64,000 bases of DNA from a virus (IMGVR_UViG_3300002835_000006), one strand, 5' to 3'. Shown: positions 9,511-55,582, counted from the first letter of the stretch. Notes: generated by a model not told the origin, from the letters alone. A program made the numbers and translations.

Positions 9511-9525
9511 ACAATACTAGCAATA

Positions 9526-11952: not shown

Positions 11953-11960
11953 TATTTATA
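11953..11960 (+). promoter_or_regulatory. Putative late promoter TATTTATA
   Basis: 23 nt before scaffold ATG. Confidence 0.6.
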
Positions 11961-24760: not shown

Positions 24761-24763
24761 ATA

Positions 24764-25810: not shown

Positions 25811-25811
25811 A

Positions 25812-28499: not shown

Positions 28500-28502
28500 A
28501 AA

Positions 28503-29951: not shown

Positions 29952-29952
29952 A

Positions 29953-30786: not shown

Positions 30787-30789
30787 ATA

Positions 30790-31407: not shown

Positions 31408-31410
31408 ATC

Positions 31411-32025: not shown

Positions 32026-32038
32026 ATTGTTATTTTTT

Positions 32039-32878: not shown

Positions 32879-32892
32879 AGAGTAAAATAAAT

Positions 32893-33546
32893 TTAATTTT
32901 TATCATTTAAAAATAAAGTATCCCCCCAATTATGTGCCCATGGATGATAATATATTTTTTTATATCTTTTTGATTGCATGAAGTCTACAATGTCCTTCTC
33001 TAATTTTTGTCCTGCATACATTTCAATTTGACAAGTTTCTAATTGTATAATTCTGAAGTCAGTGGGCTGAAATAAAATTTCACTTGAATTCAAAACATCA
33101 AATTCAGAACCTTGAATATCCATATTCACATAATCAAATTCTGTCTCAAGGTTATTTTTTTTGAGAAAATCATCTATATTCACGGATTGTACCTTTACCG
33201 ACTTTATTTTTTTTATGTGGGGATATTGTTTGGAATGTTCTTTTAGTTCTAACAAAGAAGAACAACCTGTGTTACTCATATCATTACTATAAATCAGGTT
33301 GAAATCCAACTCTTTGTTTTCGTTAGATACTGCAACTTGGAAAATTTTTTGTGAAATGTGAGAATGTTTAAGAACATTTTTTTCCAAACCTTCAATCAAT
33401 TCAGGATTGGCTTCGAACCAGTAAATCAAGTCAGGATTCAATTTTAAATAAAATTCAATTTCATTTCCCAAATGTGCACCCAAATGGAGTATTTTTTTGA
33501 TTGGTCTTTCTTTGTGCAGTTCTAAAATTCTTTGATGTAAGCTCAT
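32893..33546 (-). CDS. FkbM-family SAM methyltransferase
   Basis: LHLGAHLG, WFEANP, NMDIQGSE. Confidence 0.85.
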   Translation of the reverse strand: MSLHQRILELHKERPIKKILHLGAHLGNEIEFYLKLNPDLIYWFEANPELIEGLEKNVLKHSHISQKIFQVAVSNENKELDFNLIYSNDMSNTGCSSLLELKEHSKQYPHIKKIKSVKVQSVNIDDFLKKNNLETEFDYVNMDIQGSEFDVLNSSEILFQPTDFRIIQLETCQIEMYAGQKLEKDIVDFMQSKRYKKIYYHPWAHNWGDTLFLNDKN

Positions 33547-33548
33547 TT

Positions 33549-34259
33549 TTATAATTCTTTATATGGTTGTTTATTTTTTAATAAATTATGATTTTCTATA
33601 ACTTTAGAGAAATTTACTTTGTGGTCGTTGATTGGGTTCCCTTCATTATAAATGTAAAGGATATCTGATATGTACCTAAAATGTTTGAGACCAGCCATTT
33701 CAACCATAGGCCAAATAAATGCAACATCTCCAGCAACAGGCCAATATACTCCATTTGGGTCTCTGAGGTCTTCGTCTTTAATTTTTTTCCATAACCAAGA
33801 TTTCCAAGTACGTAAATGGGATAATGTGAATGCTTGCTTGCGGAGATTTTCTGTTGTCTGTAATGGTCTATTAAACCCTTGACGACCGTCATGATATTTA
33901 AAAGAACCACTGGTAATCCAGACGTCTTCATCTTTATAAACTTCATCAATTTTTCCTAATACATTTGGGTTGGCTAACCAATCATCACCATTCACCTCGA
34001 CACATATCTCTTCATCAGGTAAATTTAATCCATTTATTATCTGATTGTAATTTCCGGGTGGGTAATGTTTCTCCTGATTTTCAATCAAAATGAATCTATT
34101 ATCTTTTTCGATAGCCCTTTTTATATGTTCCCGTGTATTATCTGTAGACATATCGTCGGTAATGTAACAAGTGAAATCCCTGAACCTTTGACTCATTAAA
34201 CTGAATATACATTTTTCGATATAATTTTCACAATTATATGACGCGGTTAAAATTGTCAT
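33549..34259 (-). CDS. Glycosyltransferase GT2
   Basis: ILTASYNCENYIEKCI, ITDDMSTD, VNGDDWL. Confidence 0.85.
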   Translation of the reverse strand: MTILTASYNCENYIEKCIFSLMSQRFRDFTCYITDDMSTDNTREHIKRAIEKDNRFILIENQEKHYPPGNYNQIINGLNLPDEEICVEVNGDDWLANPNVLGKIDEVYKDEDVWITSGSFKYHDGRQGFNRPLQTTENLRKQAFTLSHLRTWKSWLWKKIKDEDLRDPNGVYWPVAGDVAFIWPMVEMAGLKHFRYISDILYIYNEGNPINDHKVNFSKVIENHNLLKNKQPYKEL

Positions 34260-35887
34260 GATAAAATCTTTATATACATATTTTTTATTTCGTTAGCCAC
34301 ATTTGAACTATAGTATTTTTCAAGGTCTGTCGGAGGGTCAAATTTTTCTTTAGATGTAATTACTCCCAAAGAATCAACTTTATAAATCCACCCTGGTTTT
34401 CCCGAAAGCCAACCCTCTATGGTTGTTCTTCCAAGTTGTATTCCTGCGGTTTCGGAACAACCCTTCAAATATTTTTCAACGTTCCATGTAGAAGGAAAAT
34501 ATTTTACGTTATGTTCTCTGAGTATTGCATCTAAAAAATTACCCCTGTTTTCTCCGACAACCCATAATTCTTTATTTATTGATTGAGTATATTCAATTAG
34601 GTCCATTAAAGTTTCTCTCCTTAGATAATCTAAGGTTCCAACAAACAAAACATATCCCGACTCATTCAAATCAGATTTAACAAACTTTGATTCATCAATC
34701 GGATTGTAAATTATTTCGATATCATTTTCTGGTATTTGGAATTCGGATATTAGATTTTCTTTTATTTCAGGTCTTATTGCGATATATTTTTTTATGGAGG
34801 GGTGTATTACAGGGTTTTCCAGTTCTATTACTTCAGAATGAATTGTACAAATTTTATCAATTTCAGGATAAAAGTTTAATATTCTTTCAGCTACAGGTTT
34901 GTGTTGAATGTGAATTATATCAAAATTCACTTCGGACACCCTGTACATCATGTTCACTTGTGAAACTTTGTACCCATTACCATCATCGAATCCCCATTTA
35001 CCGTCTCCCAATTTGAAACCTGGAGCTTGTTCAAAGGACAAACATTTTATCCCATTTTTCTTAGCTAAATCTGTAAGTGGACCACCAATTTGTGACATTA
35101 CAGTTACGTCACAATTTAGTTTCTTTAGACCTCTAGCTAATTCATAGACATACAATTCAGAACCAGTGAAAGTCTTGAAATTTAGACAAGTAAGTAAAAC
35201 ATTTATTTTATCCTTATCTTTGTCGAATTGTATTTTTTGTGGTAGTTTAGAAGAATACTTTTGCACAAACAATTGTCGATTTGATTCCCATTGTTCGTTG
35301 GTCATACCAATAGATTGGTGAGTAATCCTTATGTTAGTTATTACACCAACTTTAACACCTTCCAAATAGTTTTCGAAACAAAATGGAATGTCGTAGAAAT
35401 GGAATCCTTTGAATTCTTCGTTGAAATTTTTCTTTATTCTTTTTTTGTGAATTGCTATAAATAATCCATCAACAACAACTACGGGTTTAATATCTTTACC
35501 GATGGGTTCTGAGTACTTAGATTCCCATTTTTTTGTACCTTGTTGGTGGTTTACTATCCCATACATCTTCCTACGATTTTCCCACCATTGTCCACTCTCA
35601 GGCATATGAGTTGTACCCGCAACACCTAAAATACCAAACTCTGAATTATTAAAATGTTCCAATAGTTTTGGATACCAAGCGGAGGTATCAAAGGTTATAT
35701 CGTCGTGGCATAGAACGACAATATCCGTAGTCGCTTCATTTATAATCTCATTATATATTTCTGATAGAGATTTTTCTCCGTTATTTACTTTTTCTATAAC
35801 AAGATTTTTTTTAAAACCAGAGCTTTTTATAAAATATTCTTTTAGCTTGGAATTTGATTCTCGGGTTGAATATCCTATTGTAATCAT
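34256..35887 (-). CDS. Bifunctional glycosyltransferase: GT-A N-terminal domain plus GT-B C-terminal domain
   Basis: LCHDDI, GILGVAG, VVVDG, FHFYD in N-half; FTGSELYVYELARGL, RTTIEGWLSGKP in C-half. Confidence 0.75.
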   Translation of the reverse strand: MITIGYSTRESNSKLKEYFIKSSGFKKNLVIEKVNNGEKSLSEIYNEIINEATTDIVVLCHDDITFDTSAWYPKLLEHFNNSEFGILGVAGTTHMPESGQWWENRRKMYGIVNHQQGTKKWESKYSEPIGKDIKPVVVVDGLFIAIHKKRIKKNFNEEFKGFHFYDIPFCFENYLEGVKVGVITNIRITHQSIGMTNEQWESNRQLFVQKYSSKLPQKIQFDKDKDKINVLLTCLNFKTFTGSELYVYELARGLKKLNCDVTVMSQIGGPLTDLAKKNGIKCLSFEQAPGFKLGDGKWGFDDGNGYKVSQVNMMYRVSEVNFDIIHIQHKPVAERILNFYPEIDKICTIHSEVIELENPVIHPSIKKYIAIRPEIKENLISEFQIPENDIEIIYNPIDESKFVKSDLNESGYVLFVGTLDYLRRETLMDLIEYTQSINKELWVVGENRGNFLDAILREHNVKYFPSTWNVEKYLKGCSETAGIQLGRTTIEGWLSGKPGWIYKVDSLGVITSKEKFDPPTDLEKYYSSNVANEIKNMYIKILS

Positions 35888-41200: not shown

Positions 41201-41228
41201 TATAAATACTCGTTGGTAATGTATTTAT
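41201..41228. promoter_or_regulatory. Back-to-back divergent late promoter motifs
   Basis: TATAAATA (41201-41208, minus-strand motif) and TATTTAT (41222-41228) between divergent ATGs at 41184 and 41238. Confidence 0.6.
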
Positions 41229-41237: not shown

Positions 41238-43451
41238 ATGTCTTATCAGAATATTAATCAATACAATTTTAGAAAATGGAGACTTATCCCCTTCAATGAG
41301 ATTACAGACTTATGTCTTGCCAGCGATGAGAGGGATTATGACCAAGAGGTAGTTTTTTCCCCATTACTGATAGGAGAAGATGATGGAAATATAATGCCCT
41401 TTAGATTTGATTTCAATTCGTCAGCGACAACAATATGTCAGAATAATGATTGTAATTTTAGTAGTGATACAATTGTTTCAGAAAATTATTGGAACCCATT
41501 AGATATTGACCCAAATTTATGTCCTTCAGCATCCACACTTTGTGATGTTGGTCTTACAGGTATAGACAATGGTTTGGTAAAAAAAATGTCAGGAGAAACA
41601 ATCGAAATTACAACTGGTTTGTATACGAATATTTCTGATAGGTTCAGTAGATACAAGTACGATAGAAGGATGAAATTACATCCAATTACAGGATTTACAA
41701 CAACTCAAAATAGATTGTGGAATGATGATTCATATACCTATCAAATGCAATATACATATGAAAATCCTTCTGTAGGATATGTTGCGGAGTTGTTCGGGGG
41801 ATTTTTTCAAGGGTTTTACAAAATACCAGGATACGATTATCAGGTATTCCCCGAAAGAGTTGGTTTAGGATGGACTGCTGAATTTATGTTAAAACACAGA
41901 TGGTGGGGGGATACTTACGTGGGATTAAATAAAAGATACCCTGAAAACAAGGGTACATTCTTTTATATGGGCGCAAGAGCTGAAAATAAATTTTATCACT
42001 ACGCTGATGGTTCTCCAAAACAAGACACGGGTTACACGAGGGTAACTTCGGGATTGACTTGCATGCATACTTGCGAGTGTCTAAACACAGGTATAACCGC
42101 AGAACATTCCTGTATTCCTGTGTATCAACCATCAGGTGTAACATCTTACACCTGTTTGTGTGGTTGTGGTCAGCCAGTCGCCGAAGCATCTATTCCGGAA
42201 TTAGACCCGTTATACGATGGTATTTCAAACGCTCTTTCAGTCAGACTGTCGGGAGATAGTGGAAATCCAAGAATATGTGTAAAAACTTATACAATCACAG
42301 GAGCTTGTGAATTTACCGGTGTGTGTAGTTCAGGACAAACATATGTAACAGGAACATCTGTGAATGAATGGTGTTCAACAAGAGGTATATTCCACGACTG
42401 CGATAATACAAATTATATACTTCAAGAAAATTGGGTTCAAGTTGACGTCGTTTTCAGAAGAAGAGAATATTTTGAAGGGTGCGATTTGCTTGATTTAGGA
42501 GGTTTAGGATTGTTAGTTTCCGAGCAATATACTGCAACAACCGCCAATAATAGTCTGAGTTTGATAGAACCACCACTCACACATAGAGAAGTTTATGACC
42601 CTGCGACTACAGAGATTGTAAAGTTCAAGGATTCGTGGATGGAGGAAAAAAATTTCAGAATAGGTGATTTAGAAATTTATATAAACGGAAGATTGTTTAT
42701 GGTTATTTTGGATTTCGAGGAAATAATTCCAAGACTTTTGAACACACCAAAAGAAAAACAAATTGGTGTGGGTTATAATATTTCTGTTGGCGGGGGTACA
42801 CAGGGATTACATGATAATCTTACTTTTTCGGGTGGATGTCCACAAACAATAGATGATATTGTTTATCAACAAGACCCTGAATGTCTAACCACAAATGATT
42901 TAGATAATACAATTTATTCAGGACTTACCACCGATATTAAATTAGAAGAATTATTTGCCGGAAGTTTTATAGGTAATATAAGTGCATTTAGAATGTATAC
43001 TGAGCCTTTGGATGCCGCTCAAGTTGCACATAATTTTAGAGTTTTAAAAAACAGATATAACTTACTGGACCCTAATTGTCCAAATTGTGTGGTACCACCA
43101 CCATCTCCAACACCAACACCTCCTGTAACTCCAACTAATACACCAACACCTCCTGTAACTCCAACTAATACACCAACACCATCAATCACCCCTCAAGTAA
43201 TATATGGTGCTTGGTTGTGGACAAATAATGTTTGGAATAACGCTTGTAGTATGGCAGGATACGGACCAACAAACGTTTTGGTTTATTCATTTGAGCCGTT
43301 CTCTAATTTAGAACCTGGTGATTTTGTTTATGGAAATACACTTTGTAGTATCCCACCGATAAATACGAAAACTATAATAACTGATGGTAATAGATTTATA
43401 CAAATAGACCCAAGTACTGGTTTAATTGTCAACAAAGGAATATGTCCATAG
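41238..43451 (+). CDS. Probable virion protein with LamG/ConA-like domain and Thr-Pro linker
   Basis: WTAEF, IYINGRL, GNISAFRMYTEPLDAAQVAHNF (LamG-like end), Cys-rich segments, TPTPPVTPTN repeats. Confidence 0.6.
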   Translation: MSYQNINQYNFRKWRLIPFNEITDLCLASDERDYDQEVVFSPLLIGEDDGNIMPFRFDFNSSATTICQNNDCNFSSDTIVSENYWNPLDIDPNLCPSASTLCDVGLTGIDNGLVKKMSGETIEITTGLYTNISDRFSRYKYDRRMKLHPITGFTTTQNRLWNDDSYTYQMQYTYENPSVGYVAELFGGFFQGFYKIPGYDYQVFPERVGLGWTAEFMLKHRWWGDTYVGLNKRYPENKGTFFYMGARAENKFYHYADGSPKQDTGYTRVTSGLTCMHTCECLNTGITAEHSCIPVYQPSGVTSYTCLCGCGQPVAEASIPELDPLYDGISNALSVRLSGDSGNPRICVKTYTITGACEFTGVCSSGQTYVTGTSVNEWCSTRGIFHDCDNTNYILQENWVQVDVVFRRREYFEGCDLLDLGGLGLLVSEQYTATTANNSLSLIEPPLTHREVYDPATTEIVKFKDSWMEEKNFRIGDLEIYINGRLFMVILDFEEIIPRLLNTPKEKQIGVGYNISVGGGTQGLHDNLTFSGGCPQTIDDIVYQQDPECLTTNDLDNTIYSGLTTDIKLEELFAGSFIGNISAFRMYTEPLDAAQVAHNFRVLKNRYNLLDPNCPNCVVPPPSPTPTPPVTPTNTPTPPVTPTNTPTPSITPQVIYGAWLWTNNVWNNACSMAGYGPTNVLVYSFEPFSNLEPGDFVYGNTLCSIPPINTKTIITDGNRFIQIDPSTGLIVNKGICP
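43110..43180 (+). repeat. 30-nt in-frame tandem repeat x2.4 (TPTPPVTPTN)
   Basis: acaccaacacctcctgtaactccaactaat repeated exactly. Confidence 0.85.
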
Positions 43452-43476
43452 TTTCAAATTTATCAAACAAATAAAG

Positions 43477-43488
43477 TATTTATAAATA
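43477..43488. promoter_or_regulatory. Late promoter motif, palindromic TATTTATAAATA
   Basis: 7 nt before ATG at 43496. Confidence 0.55.
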
Positions 43489-43495
43489 AAAAAAA

Positions 43496-44224
43496 ATGGG
43501 TTGTAGTAAACTTACTTTGACTAACACTGGTACAACAGTTGTTACCTTCAATTATCAAGAATGCGATAGTTCTGAATGGGAGTATCAGGTTGAGCTCAAC
43601 CCTAATGAAACAAAAAATATTTGGTTTATAACCGATACTTTTTCTTGTGCTTTTAGTTCTCAAATTATTATCGCCCAAACTGCATTTCCACCTACACCAA
43701 CACCAAGTAAAACTCCGAGTGTGACACCAACACCAACAGTTACTCCTACACCATCAACAACTCCATATTATAAAATTGATGGAATTGGTGTTTATTATTA
43801 TGCTGCAGATGACTCGAGTACAATTTCAGGTATCACAGGTAACATCTTTGCTAATGGTGTGATGATGACAAAAGAGGGACATATTGAATCGAATAAACAA
43901 GTTGCTTTCACAGGTGGTACAATCTCATACTTGGGCACAGGGTCCACATTTACTTTGATATTATCGGCTTCACCTGTTGGTGATTATTACTTAGCAAGTG
44001 ACGGTGTTAGTGGACTATATAATAAACAAATATTATCTGCATTTACTTATACTCAAACTATTACAAATACTGATTTCTTCACAGGTGTCACGAGATTTTA
44101 CTCAGGTGATACTTTATTACCTTATTCTGAAAACGGAGAAATTTCAATAAATAGAGTAAATCATCTAATTTATATCACAGGAGATTATGATACTGGATAT
44201 TTCAACATTTTGCCAAATCCTTAA
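43496..44224 (+). CDS. Probable virion protein with Thr-Pro linker (242 aa)
   Basis: N-terminal domain shared with next gene, PTPTPSKTPSVTPTPT linker. Confidence 0.7.
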   Translation: MGCSKLTLTNTGTTVVTFNYQECDSSEWEYQVELNPNETKNIWFITDTFSCAFSSQIIIAQTAFPPTPTPSKTPSVTPTPTVTPTPSTTPYYKIDGIGVYYYAADDSSTISGITGNIFANGVMMTKEGHIESNKQVAFTGGTISYLGTGSTFTLILSASPVGDYYLASDGVSGLYNKQILSAFTYTQTITNTDFFTGVTRFYSGDTLLPYSENGEISINRVNHLIYITGDYDTGYFNILPNP

Positions 44225-44235
44225 AAAATAAGAAA

Positions 44236-47200
44236 ATGAATTGTATAAAATATAATCTCAAAAATACGGGCGATACCGTAGTAACTTTTAACTATCAAAG
44301 ATGTGATAACGCGGAATTAGAACTTCAGGTTAAACTCGCACCTAATCAAAATAAAATTATTTGGGCAATAAAAGATACTTTGAACATCCCAAATTTTTTC
44401 AGTAATACTACTTCAGTAGAAGAAATATTAGAAACAATTTCCGAGTGTTCGACCTTGGTAAATATTTTTGGACAAGGAACTTTTTATTATAATCCATCAA
44501 CGGATGTTAGGTCTCCTCAAATGGTTATACCAAATGATATCGTACAATCATTGGATGTTGCTCACTCTGAGGAAAAATTGTGGAAACTATACAATCCTCT
44601 CCCTTTCACTTATGTGATAAGAGAATGGGGTCTCACTGGAAATCCTCCATATTTGGTATCATCAACTTATAGAGATTTAACTTTCCCTTCAAATGTTGTG
44701 ATAACTGCTCCTGCAAGCCCTGGACTTTGCCAAGCACCTAATGGTAATTTAGTTTTTATCGATTTTGAACAAAATGTTTGGGAGCTGACCGTTCCTGTAG
44801 CACCTGCAACAGTAATGACTGCAACTTTAAAATATCAGCTACCTTCAGGTTATTTTGTCGGTGGAGACTTTTTAGTAACTGTAAATAACAAATTGTTGGT
44901 TGCCTCAGATACAGAAGTCGGAGGGGTTCCATATATTGCGTTATATCAATTTGATTATAATACAGGTTCTTTTGAGTTCGAAAGTAAAACAGTTGCCATA
45001 AATAATTATTCTGCAACAGGAGGTATAGCAATATTCAACAACGAAATATACATCTATGGTGTTTATGTGTACAAAATGGATAAGACTGCACCATACGGTG
45101 GTGTCAGAACGTCATTACAAGGAGCGGGTGGCGCTTCTTCAACAATTAAATGTAATACTGCGTTTTTAATTGGTTCAGAAACTCCAACACCTACTCCTAC
45201 ATCCACAACAACACCAACTGTCACACCTACAACATTTACAGGAACAACACCAACAGCAACTGAAACAATCGGTCTGACACCGACTCCTACACCAACATCG
45301 CAAGTTTGTTATTCAAATGTGACTTTTGATATTGATTGTAATAATGCTGTGATAGAATACATTGATTGTTGTGGAGATTGCAACTATGCCGGTCCTTATT
45401 CAATAGGAACAGGATATACTTTGAGTGGTATTTGTATTCAAAATGACTCGATTACAGGTCAGCACGTTTTGAACATTCAATATAGTGGTGCTTGTAATTG
45501 TGAGGTCACCCCAACACCAACTCCAACTAATACTTCTACTCCTGAGGGTACTCCGACACCAACACCAACGGAAACTTCAATATTAGAGACACCAACCTGT
45601 ACACCTACTGTGACTCAAACACCAACTCCAACAAATACAGAAACTCCTACTCCAACTGCTACTTCAGTAATTGAGACACCAACACCTACACCTACCGAAA
45701 CCGCTACTTCAGTAATTGAGACACCAACACCTACACCTACCGAAACTGCTACTTCAGTAATTGAGACACCAACACCTACACCTACCGAAACTGCTACTTC
45801 AGTAATTGAGACACCAACACCTACACCAACAAATACAGAAACTCCTACTCCAACTGCTACTTCAGTAATTGAGACACCAACACCTACACCTACTTGTCCG
45901 TATGGAGATTGTTATCACTATGTTGAGATTACTGTTTCAGGCTTTACAGTTATAGAATGGGGACTATGTCCTGGCTCGACCTCTGCTATTATTTATTCTG
46001 CCGATACTTATCCGGCGACTTTCATAGAAGGTCCAACAATCGAATCGGATTGTTTTTCAGGTAATTCGTATACAATTTTGACGGGTTCAACACCTGTTTC
46101 TTTAAATTATTTTAACCCTTGTTGTGATGAATTGGTAACTCCTACACCTACACCAACGAACACAGAAACTCCCACACCAACCGCTACGGAGGGTATAACT
46201 CCAACACCTACACCAACTGAAGAGATAACACCAACTCCAACACCAACTTGTCCGTATGGAGATTGTTATCACTACGTTGAATTTACTATATCAGGTTACT
46301 CTGAAATTGATTGGGTATATTGTCCTGGCACTAGCTCAGGTCAGGTATATTCCGCAGAAACGTATCCTGCAACATTTTTGTTAGGACCAGGTCTTGAGGT
46401 AGATTGTTTCTCAGGTAATTCATATACGGTTGTTTCGGGTTCAACTCCTTATTCATTAAATTATTTCAATCCTTGTTGTGAAGAGTTAGTAACTCCTACA
46501 CCTACCCCATCGCAAACCTCAACTCCTCAAGTGAGTCCAACTTGTACACCAACAGAATCTGAGACACCAACTCCTACACCAGATGTCACTCCAACTTGTA
46601 CACCAACAGAATCTGAGACACCAACTCCTACACCAGATGTCACTCCAACTTGCACACCAACAGAATCTGAGACACCAACTCCTACACCAGATGTCACTCC
46701 AACTTGCACACCAACAGAATCTGAGACACCAACTCCTACACCTTCTTGTACACCAACTTTAACACCAACTTCAACACAGACTTGTTGTCAAATTACAATT
46801 TTGACCAATTCTTCAGTTGATGTGAACATAACTGATTTGACAGTAAATGGTAGTTCAGCAACTTACGTTTCTGGTCAAGCATTACCAAATACTCCTGGTA
46901 ATGGAACGATTTTGTGTTCGACAATCGTGGGCGTTGTTGATATAAGAATCTCGGTGTTAAATTCAGTTGCGGCTCAGAAGATTACTTTAACAGACAGTTT
47001 AGGTAATGTTCAGTGTTATGATATAACTGGAACTGGACCATCTAATTATGATTTCTTAGGTGTGACTTTGAATTGTACAACACCAATCACAGTATTGGCT
47101 GAGGATGGTTCATGTATCGCACCTCCAGAAACCCCGACACCAACACCAACAGCAGAAGTAACACCTACACCAACACCGACCGAAGAGGTGACTCCAACAC

Positions 47201-47667
47201 CAACAATTACACCTTCACCCTCTGAAAGTCCACTACCTGTTTCAGGATTCTCTTACAATTTGATTGCTTTACCATATAACTTGCCATCCGATGGAAATGC
47301 AATTATGAATAACGAACCTAATAATTTCGGAAGTACCGAAATAAACTTATTGGGTCTTTCATCACGAGGTTTTTATTTCAACTCTATAGACACAAGTTTA
47401 ACTGATAGAACATCTTATTATTCAGCTTTTACAGGACAAACTATAACAATTACATTTACTCAGAATGGTGACTCTGCAATATATTCAGGAGACACAGATT
47501 CTTTCAAATTTTGGTCAACTTCAGGAGATACAGGATTTGTGTTTGGTACAGGTATAGGGGTACCTCCGATACCAGAACCCTCAGGAAATGCAGTACTGAT
47601 ACAATCTGCAACAACGACATGGGTCACAGGTGACACTGTTTATGTATCGGCGGTATTGAACGTCTAA
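44236..47667 (+). CDS. Large mucin-like Thr-Pro/Cys-rich probable virion protein (1143 aa)
   Basis: Several globular domains separated by long TP repeat blocks. Confidence 0.75.
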   Translation: MNCIKYNLKNTGDTVVTFNYQRCDNAELELQVKLAPNQNKIIWAIKDTLNIPNFFSNTTSVEEILETISECSTLVNIFGQGTFYYNPSTDVRSPQMVIPNDIVQSLDVAHSEEKLWKLYNPLPFTYVIREWGLTGNPPYLVSSTYRDLTFPSNVVITAPASPGLCQAPNGNLVFIDFEQNVWELTVPVAPATVMTATLKYQLPSGYFVGGDFLVTVNNKLLVASDTEVGGVPYIALYQFDYNTGSFEFESKTVAINNYSATGGIAIFNNEIYIYGVYVYKMDKTAPYGGVRTSLQGAGGASSTIKCNTAFLIGSETPTPTPTSTTTPTVTPTTFTGTTPTATETIGLTPTPTPTSQVCYSNVTFDIDCNNAVIEYIDCCGDCNYAGPYSIGTGYTLSGICIQNDSITGQHVLNIQYSGACNCEVTPTPTPTNTSTPEGTPTPTPTETSILETPTCTPTVTQTPTPTNTETPTPTATSVIETPTPTPTETATSVIETPTPTPTETATSVIETPTPTPTETATSVIETPTPTPTNTETPTPTATSVIETPTPTPTCPYGDCYHYVEITVSGFTVIEWGLCPGSTSAIIYSADTYPATFIEGPTIESDCFSGNSYTILTGSTPVSLNYFNPCCDELVTPTPTPTNTETPTPTATEGITPTPTPTEEITPTPTPTCPYGDCYHYVEFTISGYSEIDWVYCPGTSSGQVYSAETYPATFLLGPGLEVDCFSGNSYTVVSGSTPYSLNYFNPCCEELVTPTPTPSQTSTPQVSPTCTPTESETPTPTPDVTPTCTPTESETPTPTPDVTPTCTPTESETPTPTPDVTPTCTPTESETPTPTPSCTPTLTPTSTQTCCQITILTNSSVDVNITDLTVNGSSATYVSGQALPNTPGNGTILCSTIVGVVDIRISVLNSVAAQKITLTDSLGNVQCYDITGTGPSNYDFLGVTLNCTTPITVLAEDGSCIAPPETPTPTPTAEVTPTPTPTEEVTPTPTITPSPSESPLPVSGFSYNLIALPYNLPSDGNAIMNNEPNNFGSTEINLLGLSSRGFYFNSIDTSLTDRTSYYSAFTGQTITITFTQNGDSAIYSGDTDSFKFWSTSGDTGFVFGTGIGVPPIPEPSGNAVLIQSATTTWVTGDTVYVSAVLNV
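45655..45894 (+). repeat. 45-nt in-frame repeat, about 5 copies (TATSVIETPTPTPTE)
   Basis: actgctacttcagtaattgagacaccaacacctacacctaccgaa, near-exact copies with one interruption. Confidence 0.9.
46537..46742 (+). repeat. 54-nt in-frame tandem repeat x3.8 (PTCTPTESETPTPTPDVT)
   Basis: Near-exact DNA copies. Confidence 0.9.
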
Positions 47668-47690
47668 TTTTTACAATAAATCTTATTATC

Positions 47691-47719
47691 AAACCCTCTA
47701 CTTTTGTTGAGGGTTTTTT
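47691..47719 (+). terminator. Rho-independent terminator
   Basis: aaaccctc-loop-gagggttt followed by T-run. Confidence 0.75.
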
Positions 47720-47742
47720 ATTTTTAAAAAAAACCATTTTCA

Positions 47743-49008
47743 ATGAGCAAAATTTTTATTCAGATTGCTAGTTATCGTGACCCACAATTAGTTTTAACCA
47801 TAAAAGATATGTTAGCAAATGCAAAAAAACCAAAAAATTTGGTTATTGGTATTGCAAGACAATTTTCTGAGTCAGATAAATTTGACAATTTAGACGAATA
47901 CAAAGATGATGAACGTTTTAGAATATTAGACATTCCCTATCAAGAAGCTAAGGGGGTTTGTTGGGCAAGAAATTTAGTTCAACAATTATACTCTGGTGAA
48001 AAATATACTTTACAGATAGACTCACACATGAGATTTGTCAAAGATTGGGATGAAATCCTAATCAACATGATAAAGGGTCTTCAAAAGGATGGGTATAAGA
48101 AACCTCTACTTACGGGTTATGTACCCTCCTTTGACCCTGATAACGACCCTGCAGGAAGAGCACAAGATGCTTGGAGAATGGTGTTTGATAGATTTATTCC
48201 TGAAGGTGCAGTTTTCTTTTTACCTGAAACAATTCCTGGTTGGAGGGAAATGACAAAACCTGTACCAGCAAGATTTTATTCTGCACATTTTTGTTTTACC
48301 TTAGGTTCATTCGCAAAAGAGGTTCAACACAATCCTGAATATTATTTTCACGGTGAAGAAATCTCTATTGCTGCAAGAGCTTATACTTGGGGTTATGATT
48401 TATTTCATCCACATATTCCAGTAATTTATCACGAGTATACTCGCAAGGGTAGAACTAAACAATGGGATGATGACAAAACTTGGGGAGATAGAAATAAACA
48501 TTCACATCTTACAAACAGAAAACTGTTTGGTATGGATGGTGAAAACCAAGAGGGACATGATGGACTTTATGGTTTTGGACCTGTTAGAACACTAAGGGAC
48601 TATGAAAAGTATTCGGGTCTCTTATTCGAAAAAAGAGCTGTAGATAAGTGGTGTTTAGATAAAAACTATCCGCCAAGTCCTGCAATAGAAACTGAAGAAG
48701 ATTGGAAAAAGTCTTTCTGTACTGTTTATAAACACTGTATTGATGTTGGTTACTCCTCTGTTCCTGAAAAAGACTATGATTTTTGGGTTGTCGCATTCCA
48801 TGGACCTAATGACGAAACCCTGTATAGAAAAGATGCAGATAAATCTGAGATTACAAGACTAATGAATGACCCTGACAAATATTGTAAAATTTGGAGGGAG
48901 TTTCAAACTGATGTATTACCTAAGTATTGGGTTGTATGGCCCCATTCAGAATCAAAGGGATGGTGCGATAGATTGACGGGACAATTATCTCATAACCATG
49001 TAAGCTAA
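47743..49008 (+). CDS. Gnt1/GT60-like polypeptide GlcNAc-transferase homologue
   Basis: IFIQIASYRDP, GVCWAR, LQIDSHMRF (DSH metal motif), FHGEEISIAARAYTWGYDLFHP. Confidence 0.75.
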   Translation: MSKIFIQIASYRDPQLVLTIKDMLANAKKPKNLVIGIARQFSESDKFDNLDEYKDDERFRILDIPYQEAKGVCWARNLVQQLYSGEKYTLQIDSHMRFVKDWDEILINMIKGLQKDGYKKPLLTGYVPSFDPDNDPAGRAQDAWRMVFDRFIPEGAVFFLPETIPGWREMTKPVPARFYSAHFCFTLGSFAKEVQHNPEYYFHGEEISIAARAYTWGYDLFHPHIPVIYHEYTRKGRTKQWDDDKTWGDRNKHSHLTNRKLFGMDGENQEGHDGLYGFGPVRTLRDYEKYSGLLFEKRAVDKWCLDKNYPPSPAIETEEDWKKSFCTVYKHCIDVGYSSVPEKDYDFWVVAFHGPNDETLYRKDADKSEITRLMNDPDKYCKIWREFQTDVLPKYWVVWPHSESKGWCDRLTGQLSHNHVS

Positions 49009-49751
49009 TGAAATTCCAAGAATTACCTAAGTTTGTAATAAATTTGGAATCTCGTCCCGATAGGTTAGAAGACATAAAATTTGAATTAGAATATGTTGGT
49101 TGGGATTTTGAATTATTCAACGCGATAAATAGAAATAGTTACATGGGATGTACTCTTTCTCATTTAGAAATTCTGAGAATATCTGAAGAGAGAGGATACC
49201 AAAGGGTTATGATTATCGAAGATGATTGTCAATTCATGCCTTATTGTAAATCTTTAATTCAGGACTTGGAATCACAAATATCGGACATCGAGTTCGGTGT
49301 AATGAATTTGGCACCAACATTGAATAGACCAGTAAACAAAAGTTCAAAATATGATTTATTGTTGGATATAACTAATCTTCCACCTAAACCAAACGATAGA
49401 CTGACAGAAATATTTGCAACAAATATTTTGATTTACGATTTAAAGGTGTTAGATGCTGTCAGAACAATAAAAGATTATGCATTTCAAAGCGGTGATTATG
49501 TTCTTCCAATAGACGAACATTTGGTTAAAAACGTATACCCTAAATTCCAATCTTACACTCCAATTTTACCAATAGCACCACAGAAAAATTCATATTCTGA
49601 TGTATCTCATGGGATGTATAATAATTTTTATACTCAAACATATAATTGGAATCAATACTCACCAGTAAAAATACATCACAAATTTTTGAATCAAGATACG
49701 AATAATAAATTCAAAGAAGAAAAAAAACACTTCCATTATAATGAGAATTAA
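49008..49751 (+). CDS. Glycosyltransferase GT25
   Basis: FVINLESRPDR, GCTLSH, IIEDD, PID. Confidence 0.82.
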   Translation: MKFQELPKFVINLESRPDRLEDIKFELEYVGWDFELFNAINRNSYMGCTLSHLEILRISEERGYQRVMIIEDDCQFMPYCKSLIQDLESQISDIEFGVMNLAPTLNRPVNKSSKYDLLLDITNLPPKPNDRLTEIFATNILIYDLKVLDAVRTIKDYAFQSGDYVLPIDEHLVKNVYPKFQSYTPILPIAPQKNSYSDVSHGMYNNFYTQTYNWNQYSPVKIHHKFLNQDTNNKFKEEKKHFHYNEN

Positions 49752-50628
49752 ATTTATAACAGCAATTTATAGTGATTTGAATGGAACAGAGTTGGGGGGT
49801 AGGCCTGCCAGAGGTACTCACTATAGGTTCAGTCTTCTATCTCTTTTAAAAATGACTAATGCAGATTTTCTGTGTTATACTTCTGAAAGAGAGATAGAAT
49901 CTTTGAAAGAGTTTTTTTATAAAGAAAACAATATATCAGAAAACAAATTAAAATTTGAAATATTTGATTTGACTAATTCCAAATTCAAAGATTTAATAAA
50001 TCTTAGAAAAAATGTGGAGGACATAAAGAGAGGTGATAGATGTATTGAAATTCAATACTCTAAATTTTCTTGGTGGTGGAACGAAGATAAATCATACGAT
50101 TATTATTATTGGATAGACGCCGGATTATCACATTGTGGTTTGATACCATTGAAGTATTTGAATTTTCCTCATGGTATGAGAAGATTTTATGAGAGTACGT
50201 TGTTTAACAATTCTTTTTCAGAAAATTTAATAATCGACACAAGTGATAAATTTTTAATATTAGGGAAAGAGAATGAAAGGAATTATTGGTCTGGAACCGT
50301 GGACCAAAAATGGTATACCAACTATATAAGACAAATTCATATTATTGGTGGTTTGTTCGGTGGTCATAGAGATAGATGGGATAACATGGTTAGTACATTC
50401 GAAGATTATGTTGTAAAAATCTTGTCGGATGATTCTTGTAAGTTTTTACCTCATGAAGAACAAATAATGACTTTAATGTTTTATAACCACAACGATTTGT
50501 TTGTTAGGAAACATTTTGATATTTGGTGGTGTAGGGATAACGCACCACAAGGGACTAGTGAAGAACTATTTCTGAAAAATAAAAGTTTTTATAAAATCTT
50601 AGAGGAATTTAATAGAATATATGAATAA
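49741..50628 (+). CDS. HtrL/YibB (WlaTC)-like putative glycosyltransferase
   Basis: YSKF, YYWIDAGLSH, IIGGLFGG, EEQIM. Confidence 0.65.
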   Translation: MRIKFITAIYSDLNGTELGGRPARGTHYRFSLLSLLKMTNADFLCYTSEREIESLKEFFYKENNISENKLKFEIFDLTNSKFKDLINLRKNVEDIKRGDRCIEIQYSKFSWWWNEDKSYDYYYWIDAGLSHCGLIPLKYLNFPHGMRRFYESTLFNNSFSENLIIDTSDKFLILGKENERNYWSGTVDQKWYTNYIRQIHIIGGLFGGHRDRWDNMVSTFEDYVVKILSDDSCKFLPHEEQIMTLMFYNHNDLFVRKHFDIWWCRDNAPQGTSEELFLKNKSFYKILEEFNRIYE

Positions 50629-52294
50629 CATTACTTTAGTAACGGGTATTTGGGACATCGGGAGGTCTGAATTAAATGAGGGTTGGAAACGACCCTATGA
50701 ACATTATTTGGAAAAATTTGATTCTCTTTTGGATGCGTCTGAAAATATGATTATTTTCGGGGATGAGTCTTTAGAAGAATTTGTTTTTAGAAAAAGGAAT
50801 AAGGAGAATACTCAATTTATTAGAAGACCAATATCTTGGTTCAGAGAAAATGAGTTTTTTGAAAAAATACAACTGATAAGAAACAATGAAGATTGGAAAA
50901 ATCTTGCGGGGTGGCTTAGAGACTCAACTCAATCGAAATTAGAAAACTATAATCCTTTAGTCATGTCCAAAGTTTTTCTACTTCATGATGCCAAGATTAT
51001 GGACCAATTTAATTCGGAATATATGTTTTGGATTGACGGAGGTATTACAAACACCGTGCACTCCGGATATTTCACACACGACAAGGTTTTAAATAATCTT
51101 CCTAAATACATCTCAAAGTTTTCTTTTATTTGTTTTCCATATGAGGCAAATAATGAAATTCATGGATTTGAGTATTCAAGATTAAATGAGATTGCCGGTA
51201 CTAAAGTAGACAAAGTTGCAAGAGGAGGATTCTTTGGTGGACCAAAGTATACTATACCAGAAATAAATTCAATTTATTATGGTTTATTGAAATCTACATT
51301 AGACCAAGGGTTGATGGGTACCGAAGAATCTATTTTTAGTATAATGTGTTATAAACACTCAGATTTAATAAATTATTTTGAGATAGAAGGTAACGGTCTC
51401 ATAGGTAAATTTTTTGAGGGTTTGAAAAATAACAATTTAGAAGTAAAATCTGAGAGCGGATTTGTCTCACAGGAAATGTTAGATACAAATAAAGTTGGTT
51501 TATATGTTATAACATTTAACAGTCCAGAACAATTTGAAACTCTGATACAATCGATGAATTCTTATGATAAAGATTTTTTATTAAAAACTAAAAAATTTCT
51601 TTTAAATAATTCTACAGACAGGACAACAGATTTAACTTATAGTCAATTATGTGATGATTATGGTTTCGAAGAAATAAAAAAGGATAATTTAGGTATCTGC
51701 GGTGGAAGACAGTGGATTGCAGAACATTTTGACACAGAAACGGATTTAGATTATTACCTTTTCTTTGAGGACGATATGTTCTTCTATCCGAATCAAGAGG
51801 TTTGTAAAAATGGTTTCAACAGATTCACAGATAATCTTTATTCAAAATCTTTAGAAATTGTTAAAAAAGAAAATTTTGATTTTTTAAAATTAAATTTTTC
51901 AGAGTTTTTTGGTGATAATAGTACTCAATGGTCTTGGTATAATGTCCCTCAAGATGTAAGATTAAAGTTTTGGCCTGAAAAACCCCGACTCCCAAACATG
52001 GGATTAGACCCAAATGCCCCAAAAACAAAATTCACCAAAATAGATTCCCACAAAGGTATACCATATGCAACAGGTGAAATATACTATTGTAATTGGCCAC
52101 AAATAGTCTCAAGGCCCGGTAATAAAAAGATGTTTTTAGAAACAACTTGGGCTCACCCATTTGAACAAACGTGGATGAGTCATATGTATCAGCAGACTGT
52201 TGCGGGCAAACTCAAACCAGGGTTACTTCTTATGACACCAACCGAACATAATAGGTTCGACCATTACGATAGGAAGTTACGTAAAGAGTCATAA
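50621..52294 (+). CDS. HtrL/YibB-like domain fused to GT-A domain
   Basis: ITLVTGIWDIGR, FWIDGG, RGGFFGG, GTEESIF; C-half has YLFFEDDM. Confidence 0.7.
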   Translation: MNNITLVTGIWDIGRSELNEGWKRPYEHYLEKFDSLLDASENMIIFGDESLEEFVFRKRNKENTQFIRRPISWFRENEFFEKIQLIRNNEDWKNLAGWLRDSTQSKLENYNPLVMSKVFLLHDAKIMDQFNSEYMFWIDGGITNTVHSGYFTHDKVLNNLPKYISKFSFICFPYEANNEIHGFEYSRLNEIAGTKVDKVARGGFFGGPKYTIPEINSIYYGLLKSTLDQGLMGTEESIFSIMCYKHSDLINYFEIEGNGLIGKFFEGLKNNNLEVKSESGFVSQEMLDTNKVGLYVITFNSPEQFETLIQSMNSYDKDFLLKTKKFLLNNSTDRTTDLTYSQLCDDYGFEEIKKDNLGICGGRQWIAEHFDTETDLDYYLFFEDDMFFYPNQEVCKNGFNRFTDNLYSKSLEIVKKENFDFLKLNFSEFFGDNSTQWSWYNVPQDVRLKFWPEKPRLPNMGLDPNAPKTKFTKIDSHKGIPYATGEIYYCNWPQIVSRPGNKKMFLETTWAHPFEQTWMSHMYQQTVAGKLKPGLLLMTPTEHNRFDHYDRKLRKES

Positions 52295-52753: not shown

Positions 52754-55582
52754 GTGAAAGCCAATAAACCACTCGAAAAATATATGATTGACCCTCAAGA
52801 AATTGAGTCGTTCTTACATGGTAACGACCCCGAAGAATTTATTGTAGCTATTGAGTTTGATTATGTTTCAAACTCCATTTTCAAAATCAAAGAAATACCC
52901 AATAAGGGTAAAGAGATTCGTAAGGATACATTTATACCATTCGCTTGGGTTGGAGACCTCCGTGGTATAAATTTCTATAACAATTCCAAAATTGCTCAGA
53001 AAGAAGCGATGTCAAAATATGGGATTGTAATTCAAAAATTAGAAACGAAAGATAATGAACGTCTTGAGAATGGTTTGACTTTCATGGTCAAGTCCCTTAA
53101 AGGTTATCGTGAACTAATTCAGTTCTTCCGTGACGGTGGTTGTGACCCGTGGGGTGAAAAAACCAAGGACAAAATTATGGTTTTACCTCCTGTTGAACAA
53201 TATCTGATATCCAAAGAAAAAAGATTGTTCAAAGGTTTTGATGATTATAATCAAGTGACGCGACTTGTATTTGACTTGGAGACAAACGCTTTGGACCCAA
53301 AAGACGGTCGTATATTCATGATTGGAATCAAAACAAATAAGGGTTACCACAGGGTAATTGAATGTCTTGATGAAAAGGATGAGAAAGATGCAATCTTAGA
53401 ATTCTTCAAAGTAATTGATGAAATTAAACCAAGTATTATCGGTGGTTATAATTCGGCGAACTTCGATTGGCACTGGATATTTGAAAGAAGTCAAAAACTA
53501 GGAATAGATTTAAGAAAGTCTATCAAATCCTTACATCCCCAACATTCTTATACAAGAAAGGAATCTATCCTAAAGTTAGCAAACGAGGTAGAAGATTATC
53601 TACAAACTTCAATTTGGGGTTATAATGTCATTGATATCATTCATGCGGTGCGTAGAGCACAAGCAATCAACTCGAACATTAAAGCTGCTGGTTTGAAATA
53701 TATTACCAAGTTTATCGGTAAAGAAGCAACTGACCGTGTCTATATTGAACACACTGATATTGGTAAAATGTATGCGGCCAAAGAAGAGTATTGGTTGAAC
53801 ATTCAGAATGGAAATTACAAAAAGGTCGGATTGGATGAGAAAATCGATACGGCTTGTAAAAAAAGACCTGATGTGTATATTGTAACAACAGGAGATAATT
53901 TGGTTGAGAGATATTTGGATGATGACTTGGAAGAAACCTTAGCCGTAGACCAAGAGTTCAATCAAGCCTCATTCTTACTAGCTTCAATGATTCCCACCAC
54001 ATATGAGAGGGTTTCTACTATGGGAACGGCAACCCTTTGGAAAATGCTAATGCTTGCGTGGTCTTATAAACACGGTTTGGCAATCCCTGAGAAACAATCA
54101 AAGACAGACTTCGTAGGAGGTCTTTCTCGACTATTAAAAGTCGGGTACAGTAAGAATGTCCTAAAGCTAGACTTCTCCTCTCTATACCCCTCTATTCAGC
54201 TCGTACACGATGTTTTCCCCGACTGTGATGTTACAGGTGCGATGAAAGGAATGTTAAAGTATTTTCGTGATACTCGTATCCGTTACAAACAACTTGCCGA
54301 AGAGTTTGAGAAAACTGACCCTCAAAAATCAGCATCTTATTCTAACAAACAATTACCCATCAAAATCTTCATCAACTCAATGTTCGGTGCTTTGTCCGCC
54401 CCTCAGGTTTTTGCTTGGGGTGATATGTACATGGGTGAACAGATTACTTGTACGGGTCGTCAGTATCTGAGACAGATGATTAAATTCTTTATGTCTCGAG
54501 GTTATACTCCCTTGGTTATGGATACTGACGGTGTAAACTTCTCAAGTCCTGATGATGTCGACAAACACAAATATATTGGTCGTGGTTTAAATTGGAAGGT
54601 CAAAGTTGGTAAAGAATATACAGGACCTGATGCGGATGTTGCTGAATATAACGATATTTTCATGAGGGGTGAAATGGCTTTGGATACTGACGGAGTTTGG
54701 CCTTCGTGTATCAATTTGGCAAGAAAAAACTACGCAGTTATGGATGCAAGAGGTAAAATCAAATTGACAGGTAATTCAATCAAGTCAAAAAAACTTCCCT
54801 TGTATATCGAAACCTTTTTGGACAAAGGAATTAAACTCCTATTAGAAGGTAGAGGTAAAGATTTTATCGAGTACTACTATGAGTATCTAAAAATAATTTT
54901 TGACCAAAAAATTCCTTTATCCCAAATTGCTCAGAGAGCCAAAGTAAAATTGACCTTGGACGAGTATAAAAAAAGGTTGACACAAAAAACCAAGGCCGGT
55001 AATAGTATGTCTCGTATGGCACACATGGAATTGGCAATACAGGAGGGTTTGAATGTAAACCTTGGTGATGTTATAATGTATGTCAATAACGGTAAAAAGG
55101 CGTCTCAAGGTGACGTACAAAAAATGACCGCTAAACAAATCAAAGATTTAAATGAATATAACAAAGTCCAAAACCCAAATTCGAAACCAGTACAAGATGG
55201 AGTAATTGTGAATTGTTATATGTTGAAGGCAGATATTTTGGAAAACAACCCCAATCTGACAGGTGAGTATAATGTTCCGAGGGCAATCGTTACTTTCAAT
55301 AAAAGAATTGAACCTTTGTTAGTGGTATTCCAACAAGAGGTTCGTGACAATTTGTTAGTGACCGACCCTGAACAAAGAGGTATATTTACAACCGCTCAAT
55401 GTGAATTGATAAACGGGATGCCATTTGAAGAGGGCGACCAAGACAAACTTAAAGAGGATGTTTTGGATATTACTGAACAGGAATTAAACTATTGGGGTAG
55501 AAGAGGTCTTAGTTCAGAATATATTTACGAATTAGCGGAAGAAGATTGGAAAATTAAATTAGGAGTTCTTGAGTCCGTCTGA
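52754..55582 (+). CDS. polB: DNA polymerase family B
   Basis: Exo FDLET, GYNSANFD; Pol DFSSLYP, KIFINSMFG, MDTDG; likely true start is ATG at 52784. Confidence 0.95.
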   Translation: MKANKPLEKYMIDPQEIESFLHGNDPEEFIVAIEFDYVSNSIFKIKEIPNKGKEIRKDTFIPFAWVGDLRGINFYNNSKIAQKEAMSKYGIVIQKLETKDNERLENGLTFMVKSLKGYRELIQFFRDGGCDPWGEKTKDKIMVLPPVEQYLISKEKRLFKGFDDYNQVTRLVFDLETNALDPKDGRIFMIGIKTNKGYHRVIECLDEKDEKDAILEFFKVIDEIKPSIIGGYNSANFDWHWIFERSQKLGIDLRKSIKSLHPQHSYTRKESILKLANEVEDYLQTSIWGYNVIDIIHAVRRAQAINSNIKAAGLKYITKFIGKEATDRVYIEHTDIGKMYAAKEEYWLNIQNGNYKKVGLDEKIDTACKKRPDVYIVTTGDNLVERYLDDDLEETLAVDQEFNQASFLLASMIPTTYERVSTMGTATLWKMLMLAWSYKHGLAIPEKQSKTDFVGGLSRLLKVGYSKNVLKLDFSSLYPSIQLVHDVFPDCDVTGAMKGMLKYFRDTRIRYKQLAEEFEKTDPQKSASYSNKQLPIKIFINSMFGALSAPQVFAWGDMYMGEQITCTGRQYLRQMIKFFMSRGYTPLVMDTDGVNFSSPDDVDKHKYIGRGLNWKVKVGKEYTGPDADVAEYNDIFMRGEMALDTDGVWPSCINLARKNYAVMDARGKIKLTGNSIKSKKLPLYIETFLDKGIKLLLEGRGKDFIEYYYEYLKIIFDQKIPLSQIAQRAKVKLTLDEYKKRLTQKTKAGNSMSRMAHMELAIQEGLNVNLGDVIMYVNNGKKASQGDVQKMTAKQIKDLNEYNKVQNPNSKPVQDGVIVNCYMLKADILENNPNLTGEYNVPRAIVTFNKRIEPLLVVFQQEVRDNLLVTDPEQRGIFTTAQCELINGMPFEEGDQDKLKEDVLDITEQELNYWGRRGLSSEYIYELAEEDWKIKLGVLESV

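Follow-up and report, generated by a model that had tools for sequence, protein, structure and literature searches.

Initiation of mucin-type glycans by glycosyltransferases of the GT60 and GT27 families is regarded as a eukaryotic process, and glycosylation of phage virions is known from few cases, chiefly in mycobacteriophages. Freeman and co-workers reportedly showed in 2023 that mycobacteriophage glycosyltransferases work in the host cytoplasm on structural proteins of the phage that encodes them; we know of no link between that virion glycosylation and GT60. Described here is a candidate system in IMGVR_UViG_3300002835_000006, a stretch of viral DNA of 64,000 nucleotides (the window; positions are counted from its first letter and genes read on the strand presented, unless noted). 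Between 41238 and 52294 the window codes for three proteins with tracts rich in threonine and proline (Thr-Pro tracts), followed by an operon of four glycosyltransferase genes headed by a GT60 homologue. Sugar-coating of the tracts is the most likely role of this four-gene cassette because GT60 genes adjoin those of Thr-Pro proteins in distant phages and in many bacteria. Sequence, structure models and gene pairing lead us to favour, short of firm conviction, a cytoplasmic O-glycosylation in the host that a GT60 enzyme starts on Thr-Pro tracts of proteins encoded by the phage itself. The seven genes are the following.

41238-43451, plus strand: P0001, 737 amino acids; Cys-rich core at residues 1-611, Thr-Pro tract at 620-653, small C-terminal domain
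43496-44224, plus strand: P0002, 242 amino acids; N-terminal domain of ~60 amino acids, Thr-Pro tract at 60-91, C-terminal domain
44236-47667, plus strand: P0003, 1143 amino acids; N-terminal domain as in P0002, then Cys-rich globular modules between ten Thr-Pro tracts
47743-49008, plus strand: P0004, 421 amino acids; GT60/PF11397 transferase of predicted GT-A fold, catalytic part at ~2-312, beta-rich C-terminal domain at ~313-421
49008-49751, plus strand: P0005, 247 amino acids; GT25 (PF01755), 43.8 bits against a cut-off of 24, E 3e-11
49741-50628, plus strand: P0006, 295 amino acids; HtrL/YibB-like, a weak assignment
50621-52294, plus strand: P0007, 557 amino acids; HtrL_YibB at 3-255 and a GT2-like GT-A domain at ~285-557

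The characterised GT60 enzymes act on polypeptides (PMC8724618). In Dictyostelium and Trypanosoma cruzi, GT60 alpha-N-acetylglucosamine (alpha-GlcNAc) transferases start mucin-type O-glycans on Thr/Ser-rich domains, which other glycosyltransferases then extend, and GT60 enzymes differ from those of GT27 in having no C-terminal ricin-like lectin domain (PMC8724618). The protist enzymes are associated with the Golgi, whereas P0004 is a soluble phage-encoded protein predicted to act in the bacterial cytoplasm. Gnt1 of Dictyostelium discoideum (Q8T1C6, GT60) belongs to the same Pfam family as P0004 and is, as P0004 is predicted to be, soluble, cytoplasmic and active on protein. Gnt1 modifies one hydroxyproline of Skp1 after the action of a dedicated prolyl hydroxylase, in contrast to the long Thr-Pro tracts of many proteins that would be the targets of P0004; P0004 also differs from Gnt1 by an additional C-terminal domain of ~110 amino acids, and no Skp1-type pathway is evident in the phage. 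The GT27 polypeptide N-acetylgalactosamine (GalNAc) transferases (GalNAc-T1, T2, T4, T10 and T12, and PGANT9) share the GT-A fold with P0004 and, like it, have an accessory domain on the C-terminal side of the catalytic domain, but they form another CAZy family and their accessory domain is a ricin-type lectin.

Among phages, the mycobacteriophage glycans are found at the C-termini of capsid and tail-tube subunits according to PMC12619734, whereas the proposed targets in the present phage are Thr-Pro linkers of modular proteins. The same source describes a 'moraphage' lineage with four core glycosyltransferase families, which may be related to the present phage. The Xanthomonas jumbo phage XacN1 resembles the present phage in having homologues of P0004 (46% identity), P0006 (28%) and P0007 (44%) together with many Thr-Pro tracts, and differs from it by a carbamoyltransferase gene inside the cassette and by its gammaproteobacterial host. 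Schiff-stained glycoprotein bands are present in XacN1 virions and its authors suggest the two annotated glycosyltransferases, encoded by open reading frames (ORFs) ORF328 and ORF334, as their cause; the available text of their article identifies none of the glycoproteins and names neither the GT60 family nor a link to Thr-Pro tracts (PMC5852040). These unexplained bands are the nearest published trace: the literature on GT60 or PF11397 in phages, on HtrL in viruses and on mucin-like glycosylation in phages yielded no description of the present system. A preliminary description of this DNA knew of no earlier account of a GT60-initiated mucin system in a phage. This holds for the enzyme family and its link to Thr-Pro tracts, not for virion glycoproteins of XacN1, which PMC5852040 already reports.

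The GT60 enzyme and its partner transferases

P0004 matches PF11397 with 226.8 bits (cut-off 21, E 7e-67) and phrog_24687 with an E-value of 8.5e-165. Its AlphaFold model has a predicted local distance difference test (pLDDT) of 94.9 and the best fold match among reviewed proteins is Dictyostelium Gnt1 over residues 2-312 (E 1e-24, template modelling (TM) score 0.65, 25% identity). The Gnt1/GT60-like character attributed to the first transferase in the preliminary description is borne out by both the profile and the fold search. Among solved structures the top 40 matches of the model are all GT27 polypeptide GalNAc-transferases (E ~1e-10, TM score 0.42-0.53, 10-17% identity), and sequence searches of solved structures with P0004, its profile, P0001 and P0007 gave nothing usable. 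In an alignment of 41 sequences (34-86% identity) conservation is at least 90% at each of D93, S94 and H95 and complete at H230; D93-S94-H95 forms a DxH motif, which we take to be the metal-binding motif of GT27 and GT60. By sequence profile and model, membership of P0004 in GT60/PF11397 is secure, while the model makes the protein a candidate for an initiating polypeptide N-acetylhexosamine (HexNAc) transferase. Public data contain more than 6,600 close homologues of P0004, which also matches 4,560 clusters formed at 50% identity. The C-terminal domain at ~313-421 (48680-49008) is beta-rich and Trp/Cys-rich, measures ~110 amino acids and is kept in homologues from both phages and bacteria; binding of the acceptor or of the glycan is a possible role.

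No signal peptide or membrane helix is predicted in any of the seven proteins P0001-P0007. Enzymes and candidate substrates therefore share the cytoplasm, which is the setting that had been proposed for the process.

The fold match to an enzyme of Skp1 hydroxyproline raises another possible acceptor. A phage prolyl 4-hydroxylase would act on tract prolines, to which the GT60 enzyme would then add GlcNAc. The search for a hydroxylase advised in the preliminary description found three PF13640-type 2-oxoglutarate/Fe(II) oxygenases in each of the complete clade relatives G001 and G002. XacN1, however, has the GT60 enzyme and Thr-Pro tracts with no PF13640 match, no such oxygenase gene lies within the cassette or is linked to it, and the family is not specific for prolyl hydroxylation. 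This route is considered very unlikely, hydroxyproline being a less likely acceptor of P0004 than threonine.

The other three transferases differ in how well they are assigned. P0007 residues 3-255 match PF09612 (HtrL_YibB) with 74 bits (cut-off 24.1, E 2e-20); for its C-terminal half, only language-model features point to GT2. P0006 has no Pfam match and resembles HtrL by language-model features, by a BLAST match to P0007 (E 0.004) and by its 28% identity to XacN1 ORF332. It is called HtrL-like here, and not a demonstrated member of HtrL_YibB, because no Pfam family matches it and the remaining signs are a weak BLAST match and model features. Of the series read earlier from the sequence (GT25, HtrL-like, HtrL plus GT-A), Pfam thus upholds P0005 and the N-terminus of P0007, the P0006 assignment being weak and that of the C-terminal half of P0007 resting on features.

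The middle of the operon varies between loci. The GT25 slot (49008 onwards) finds no match in L032, L033, L035, L043, L061, L063, L074, L075, L078 and L080; in most of these ten loci the P0006 slot is also replaced by other DNA, and the GT60 and P0007 genes are retained, with a GT60 protein that is 83-85% identical. The exchange of P0005 and P0006 suggests a diversification of the glycan under selection, which would bear on phage-host recognition.

For the activity, donor sugar, acceptor residue, virion location and biological role of the system we infer the following course of events. The acceptors would be the Thr-Pro tracts of P0001-P0003 and of paralogues encoded elsewhere in the genome. 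After synthesis of these proteins P0004, with its GT-A fold and DxH metal site, would move a first sugar from a uridine diphosphate (UDP)-sugar to Thr hydroxyls of the tracts; this sugar is probably GlcNAc or another HexNAc, a donor guessed from the family name. P0007 (HtrL-like plus GT2-like), its widely co-occurring partner, would add the next sugars, and the swappable P0005 (GT25) and P0006 (HtrL-like) would vary the chain. The products would be glycosylated, stiff and protease-resistant spacers that join globular modules.

Pairing of GT60 genes with Thr-Pro tracts in phages and bacteria

Close viral homologues of P0004 were found in 368 contigs, of which the best 80 loci were compared in detail. 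The gene order in these 80 loci is P0001 core, variable Thr-Pro genes, GT60, middle glycosyltransferase genes and P0007. Thr-Pro ORFs lie directly upstream of the GT60 gene in all 37 clade loci that have at least 6 kb of upstream DNA. Phages XacN1, Xoo-sp13 and RAS14 encode GT60 homologues with 44-49% identity to P0004; in XacN1 the P0004 homologue is ORF334 and the P0007 homologue is ORF330, which aligns at full length. Sites coding for TPTPTPT number 16 in XacN1, 16 in Xoo-sp13 and 6 in RAS14, as compared to none for the reversed-pattern controls, and none are found in five large GT60-free phages with related capsids (1.58 Mb in total). XacN1 ORF325 (3313 amino acids) has a Thr-Pro tract, follows the baseplate wedge genes and is positioned ~0.5 kb from the glycosyltransferase block. 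In L234, a marine phage contig binned as Planctomycetaceae, the genes on either side of GT60 code for Thr-Pro bead proteins with matches to 'virion structural protein' PHROGs. The co-occurrence of GT60 and Thr-Pro genes expected for related phages in the preliminary description is found in the clade, in XacN1-type phages and in this marine contig.

The pairing extends to bacteria, where GT60 homologues are present at 565 loci at least. A P0007 homologue is encoded in 34 of the 80 best loci from bacteria or metagenome-assembled genomes (MAGs) and adjoins the GT60 gene in most of them. Tracts at bacterial loci were counted with a frame-specific scan, used since dropping ORFs overlapped by longer ORFs lost likely real genes of high-GC genomes. 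A strong Thr-Pro tract is found within 1.5 kb of the glycosyltransferase block in 18 of 72 loci, at a density 3.5 times that of farther flanks (p 2.7e-4). Among 18 bacterial genomes checked, at least six have their only or largest TPTPTPT-coding tract adjoining the GT60 homologue. The sole such tract of a 3.8-Mb Gemmatimonadaceae genome (G047) lies 46 nucleotides upstream of GT60. In five others (G048, G049, G050, G063 and G064, from Vicinamibacterales, Congregibacter, Ralstonia, Achromobacter and Paraherbaspirillum) the tract beside GT60 either has no counterpart elsewhere in the genome or far exceeds all others in size, and an Acidimicrobiaceae genome (G061) has its largest cluster of sites beside GT60 with about nine sites elsewhere.

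The carriers of tracts beside bacterial GT60 include PqqD-like proteins with a Thr-Pro tail, proteins with a twin-arginine-like leader followed by a tract, LamG proteins with Thr-Pro, cargo of the type IX secretion system and VgrG with (TP)n. Nothing speaks more strongly than this variety for recognition of the tract itself by the enzyme.

PqqD-like domains are of the kind that binds peptides in the pathways of ribosomally synthesised and post-translationally modified peptides. At two Gemmatimonadaceae loci (L227:7215-7940 and L229:7230-7955) such a domain is followed first by a hydrophobic segment and then by ~100 amino acids of Thr-Pro tail. The genes are found 46-60 nucleotides upstream of GT60, the Pfam match on the L227 ORF has an E-value of 6e-6, and the fusion gene holds the sole TPTPTPT-coding tract of the L229 genome. 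Short proteins with the leader RR(R/K)LLQ(A/V)LG and then long Thr-Pro tracts are encoded at L246:2189-3064, L251:2503-3015, L282:4880-5476 and L293:4822-5460, those of L282 and L293 having a C-terminal hydrophobic anchor after the tract. Proteins with this twin-arginine-like leader adjoin the GT60 and P0007 pair in Deltaproteobacteria, Vicinamibacterales and Gammaproteobacteria. Spike proteins (VgrG) of type VI secretion that bear (TP)n tracts are encoded by Ralstonia (L273:10267-13131), Paraherbaspirillum (L239:11903-14392) and Achromobacter (L260:13049-15520). Their genes lie 1.2-4 kb from the GT60 homologue, and no other tract in the respective genome comes near theirs in size; the L273 tract is a C-terminal tail of ~110 amino acids.

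The Thr-Pro proteins and alternative readings of the cassette

The three Thr-Pro genes of the preliminary description (737, 242 and 1143 amino acids) were, like the four glycosyltransferase genes, recovered as ORFs with the same positions and lengths, and their tracts were found by the 12-residue window rule that defines a tract in proteins of the window. The ten tracts of P0003 sum 250 residues, of which 101 are Thr and 75 Pro. P0003, whose gene starts 11 nucleotides past the end of P0002, matches phrog_15511 (unknown function) with an E-value of 4e-13. A six-frame scan of the whole window finds Thr-Pro tracts confined to P0001-P0003, a 5'-cut ORF at 2-616 and a PTKPA repeat at 2971-3021, and they are therefore no artefact of composition. 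Recent tandem duplications are present in the tract DNA (45 nucleotides repeated 3.9 times at 98%, and 54 nucleotides repeated 3.8 times at 99%). The 5'-cut ORF (2-616, plus strand) has Thr-Pro tracts and a match to phrog_15511, while the PTKPA motif is present three times in an ORF at 2293-3147 (plus strand) upstream of the terminase gene. These two ORFs show that genes for Thr-Pro proteins are spread over the genome, and the complete relative G001 encodes four further ones (446, 1433, 495 and 720 amino acids).

The N-terminal domains of ~60 amino acids of P0002 and P0003 share 60% identity. Searched for with a profile in the window and in related loci, this domain turns up in 89 ORFs and is N-terminal in 83 of these; the profile also matches a distant paralogue in G001. 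The P0001 core (1-611) has a mean column identity of 85% among homologues, whose total lengths range from 654 to 1273 amino acids, and is LamG/ConA-like by language-model features. An AlphaFold2 model of P0001 residues 1-615 built on a shallow alignment (72-81% identity) had a pLDDT of 32.8 and was unusable, and a translated search with P0001 among phage records gave no match. Phage appendage and receptor-binding proteins commonly combine a conserved N-terminal part with a variable distal part, and by analogy this layout suggests such a role.

Three signals of transcription border these genes.

41201-41208 and 41222-41228, plus strand: promoter-like motifs upstream of P0001, TATAAATA and TATTTAT respectively
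43477-43488, plus strand: promoter-like motif upstream of P0002, TATTTAT overlapping TATAAATA
47692-47725, plus strand: intrinsic-terminator-like hairpin, CCCTC / GAGGG followed by a T-run, read in the sequence, loop of ~10 nucleotides

TATTTAT is located 16 nucleotides before P0001 and 19 nucleotides before P0002, and the T4-type TATAAATA is found beside both copies. In the window, 16 of 36 TATTTAT copies stand in sense 8-45 nucleotides before a gene start (1.9% expected, p ~1e-18). The genes concerned include portal, several others in the head region, P0001 and P0002, and none of the glycosyltransferase genes. Further sites are found at 8094-8101, 9525-9532 and 11952-11959, often as ATATTTAT. 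TATTTAT is a candidate late-promoter element of the present phage, unlike the TATAAATA of T4, and its late timing is presumed. TATAAATA by itself is not enriched in the window (11 copies as compared to 6.9 expected) and a sigma-70 promoter scan of the window gave fewer matches than shuffled sequence. The late promoters previously assigned to the three Thr-Pro genes are thus matched by TATTTAT and TATAAATA before P0001 and P0002; P0003 has no TATTTAT of its own. The terminator and the coupled four-gene operon described at the same time are both present, the four glycosyltransferase genes (47743-52294) overlapping by 1, 11 and 8 nucleotides. A consensus terminator scan, with a loop range of 3-8 nucleotides, left out the 47692-47725 hairpin.

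A number of observations weigh against glycosylation of the tracts by the cassette. Approximately 75% of the 72 bacterial GT60 loci have no adjoining tract, and at L214, a distant viral locus, the 10 kb around GT60 are free of tracts. The 37 clade loci with upstream Thr-Pro ORFs count far below 37 independent events because they are closely related, and the whole-genome TPTPTPT DNA pattern ignores the reading frame and gives noisy counts where GC content is high. PF11397 is absent from 38 of the 44 records searched of viral contigs with Thr-Pro tracts (four rated 93-100% complete); tracts therefore do not need the enzyme and can be plain linkers. The glycosyltransferase operon sits past the terminator and has no TATTTAT, and therefore its expression schedule may differ. 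Profile searches with P0001-P0003 gave no match to a structural PHROG or Pfam family, and the activity of the phage and bacterial GT60 branch is predicted from sequence, fold and gene pairing.

The tracts could thus be plain flexible linkers next to a cassette that acts elsewhere, on a host envelope glycan, a small molecule or another phage protein such as the capsid, with adjacency reflecting a shared variable region. Tracts in contigs free of PF11397, bacterial loci without a tract and the terminator and promoter differences between the two gene sets all fit this explanation, as does the origin of the Pfam names GT25 and HtrL in lipopolysaccharide gene clusters. It is nevertheless judged unlikely. 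The nearest folds of P0004 are all polypeptide transferases, the finding of the only or largest tract beside GT60 in several bacterial genomes goes beyond chance adjacency, and all the glycosyltransferases are soluble, with neither a lipid-carrier initiating transferase nor a flippase in the complete relatives. A lipid-carrier route was set aside: PF02397, PF00953 and PF01943 (phosphoglycosyl transferase/Wzx) are absent from the complete relatives and XacN1.

A different view accepts that the cassette glycosylates the tracts and places their carriers outside the virion, where they could serve, for example, as adhesive or decoy glycoproteins, either within the infected cell or after lysis has set them free. 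The missing structural homology of P0001-P0003, which leaves the virion fibres of the preliminary description without support, would agree with such a destination, and the Thr-Pro proteins paired with GT60 in bacteria are of many kinds, some of them apparently exported. However, TATTTAT is common to portal and several head-region genes, and P0001 combines a constant N-terminus with a C-terminus that varies, as appendage proteins typically do. XacN1 ORF325 follows baseplate wedge genes in a phage whose virions contain glycoproteins, according to PMC5852040, and the L234 Thr-Pro proteins match virion structural PHROGs. A role confined to the infected cell or its lysate appears improbable; P0001-P0003 may instead be parts of the particle, as their layout, the promoter motif and these analogies suggest.

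Phage, neighbouring genes and biological meaning

By its gene content the window is part of a large tailed phage, with genes for terminase (4464-6227), portal (6265-8094) and a T4-type major head protein (13758-15599). The capsid protein is 34-42% identical to those of known phages, which are hence distant kin at most, and none of 50,697 phage records matched the locus when its DNA was searched for at near identity. The source is taken to be a jumbo phage of an abundant environmental clade because related metagenomic contigs reach 321-326 kb, one of them with terminal repeats. The major head protein has 613 amino acids, with a capsid-family match confined to residues 338-590 and ~330 N-terminal residues outside it.

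The GT60 copies from bacterial bins that are nearest to P0004 carry the labels Saprospiraceae or Bacteroidia. These labels hint at a Bacteroidota host, and the bins may be misassigned phage contigs. The contig L215 (CALJOK010000014.1, 230 kb, Saprospiraceae MAG label) has GT60 at 70% and P0007 at 64% identity and a phage-like locus GC content of 0.34. This contig probably comes from a jumbo phage and ended up in a bacterial bin; it would be a clue to the host if it is a true member of that bin.

The glycosyltransferase operon adjoins a gene for a family-B-like DNA polymerase (52754-55582), and in XacN1-type phages the corresponding genes are near replication genes. This location would suit a cassette that glycosylates phage DNA, by way of hypermodified bases, as a protection against restriction. 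The relatives have a sole gene of the thymidylate synthase family, which scores 264-317 bits against ThyA and is judged to be ordinary, not a hydroxymethylase; the fold neighbours of P0004 are transferases of polypeptides; and bacterial homologues lie beside Thr-Pro proteins, not beside DNA-modification genes. Given the ThyA score and these fold neighbours, a role in DNA hypermodification is judged extremely improbable.

A second group of sugar genes is encoded upstream.

23954-35887, minus strand: sugar-nucleotide, glycosyltransferase and methyltransferase cluster

Its glycosyltransferases are two of family GT2, a GT2_5+GT4 fusion, a GT10 and a GT11, the last two being fucosyltransferase-like. 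The cluster also codes for two FkbM methyltransferases, a weak TylF-like match and two NAD-dependent epimerase/dehydratases matching GDP-mannose 4,6-dehydratase, and a PhoH gene is found amid these genes. The cluster is syntenic in G001 and G002, while XacN1 has no match to its GT11 or epimerase/dehydratase gene, the two genes searched. The preliminary description had an operon at 23.9-38.6 kb extend and methylate the glycans: the cluster is real, and the comparison with clade relatives and XacN1 lends no support to its link to the tracts. It may elaborate the tract glycans in the present clade. The parallel then drawn with the GlcNAc-Gal-Fuc glycan of Skp1 is a speculation by analogy.

The observation made in the preliminary description is confirmed and its interpretation partly supported. 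Gene layout, enzyme family and fold, a shared compartment and a recurrent genomic pairing are all observed. If the tracts are glycosylated as proposed, very abundant freshwater jumbo phages would make mucin-like glycoproteins in the bacterial cytoplasm and the glycoprotein bands of XacN1 would find an explanation. A broader and more tentative proposal is that the pair formed by a GT60-like and an HtrL/GT2 enzyme might be a general prokaryotic system of cytoplasmic mucin-type O-glycosylation for which the Thr-Pro tract serves as a portable tag. Its targets, put forward just as tentatively, could comprise jumbo-phage appendage proteins, spike tails of the type VI secretion system, Thr-Pro proteins with twin-arginine leaders and PqqD-fused tails. 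Mucin-type initiation by the GT60 lineage would in that case be no eukaryotic invention. In many bacteria, too, this pair of enzymes would mark Thr-Pro tracts, those of type VI spike tails among them, and it would provide both a testable sequence rule to predict prokaryotic glycoproteins and a simple soluble toolkit to O-glycosylate designed linkers in bacteria.

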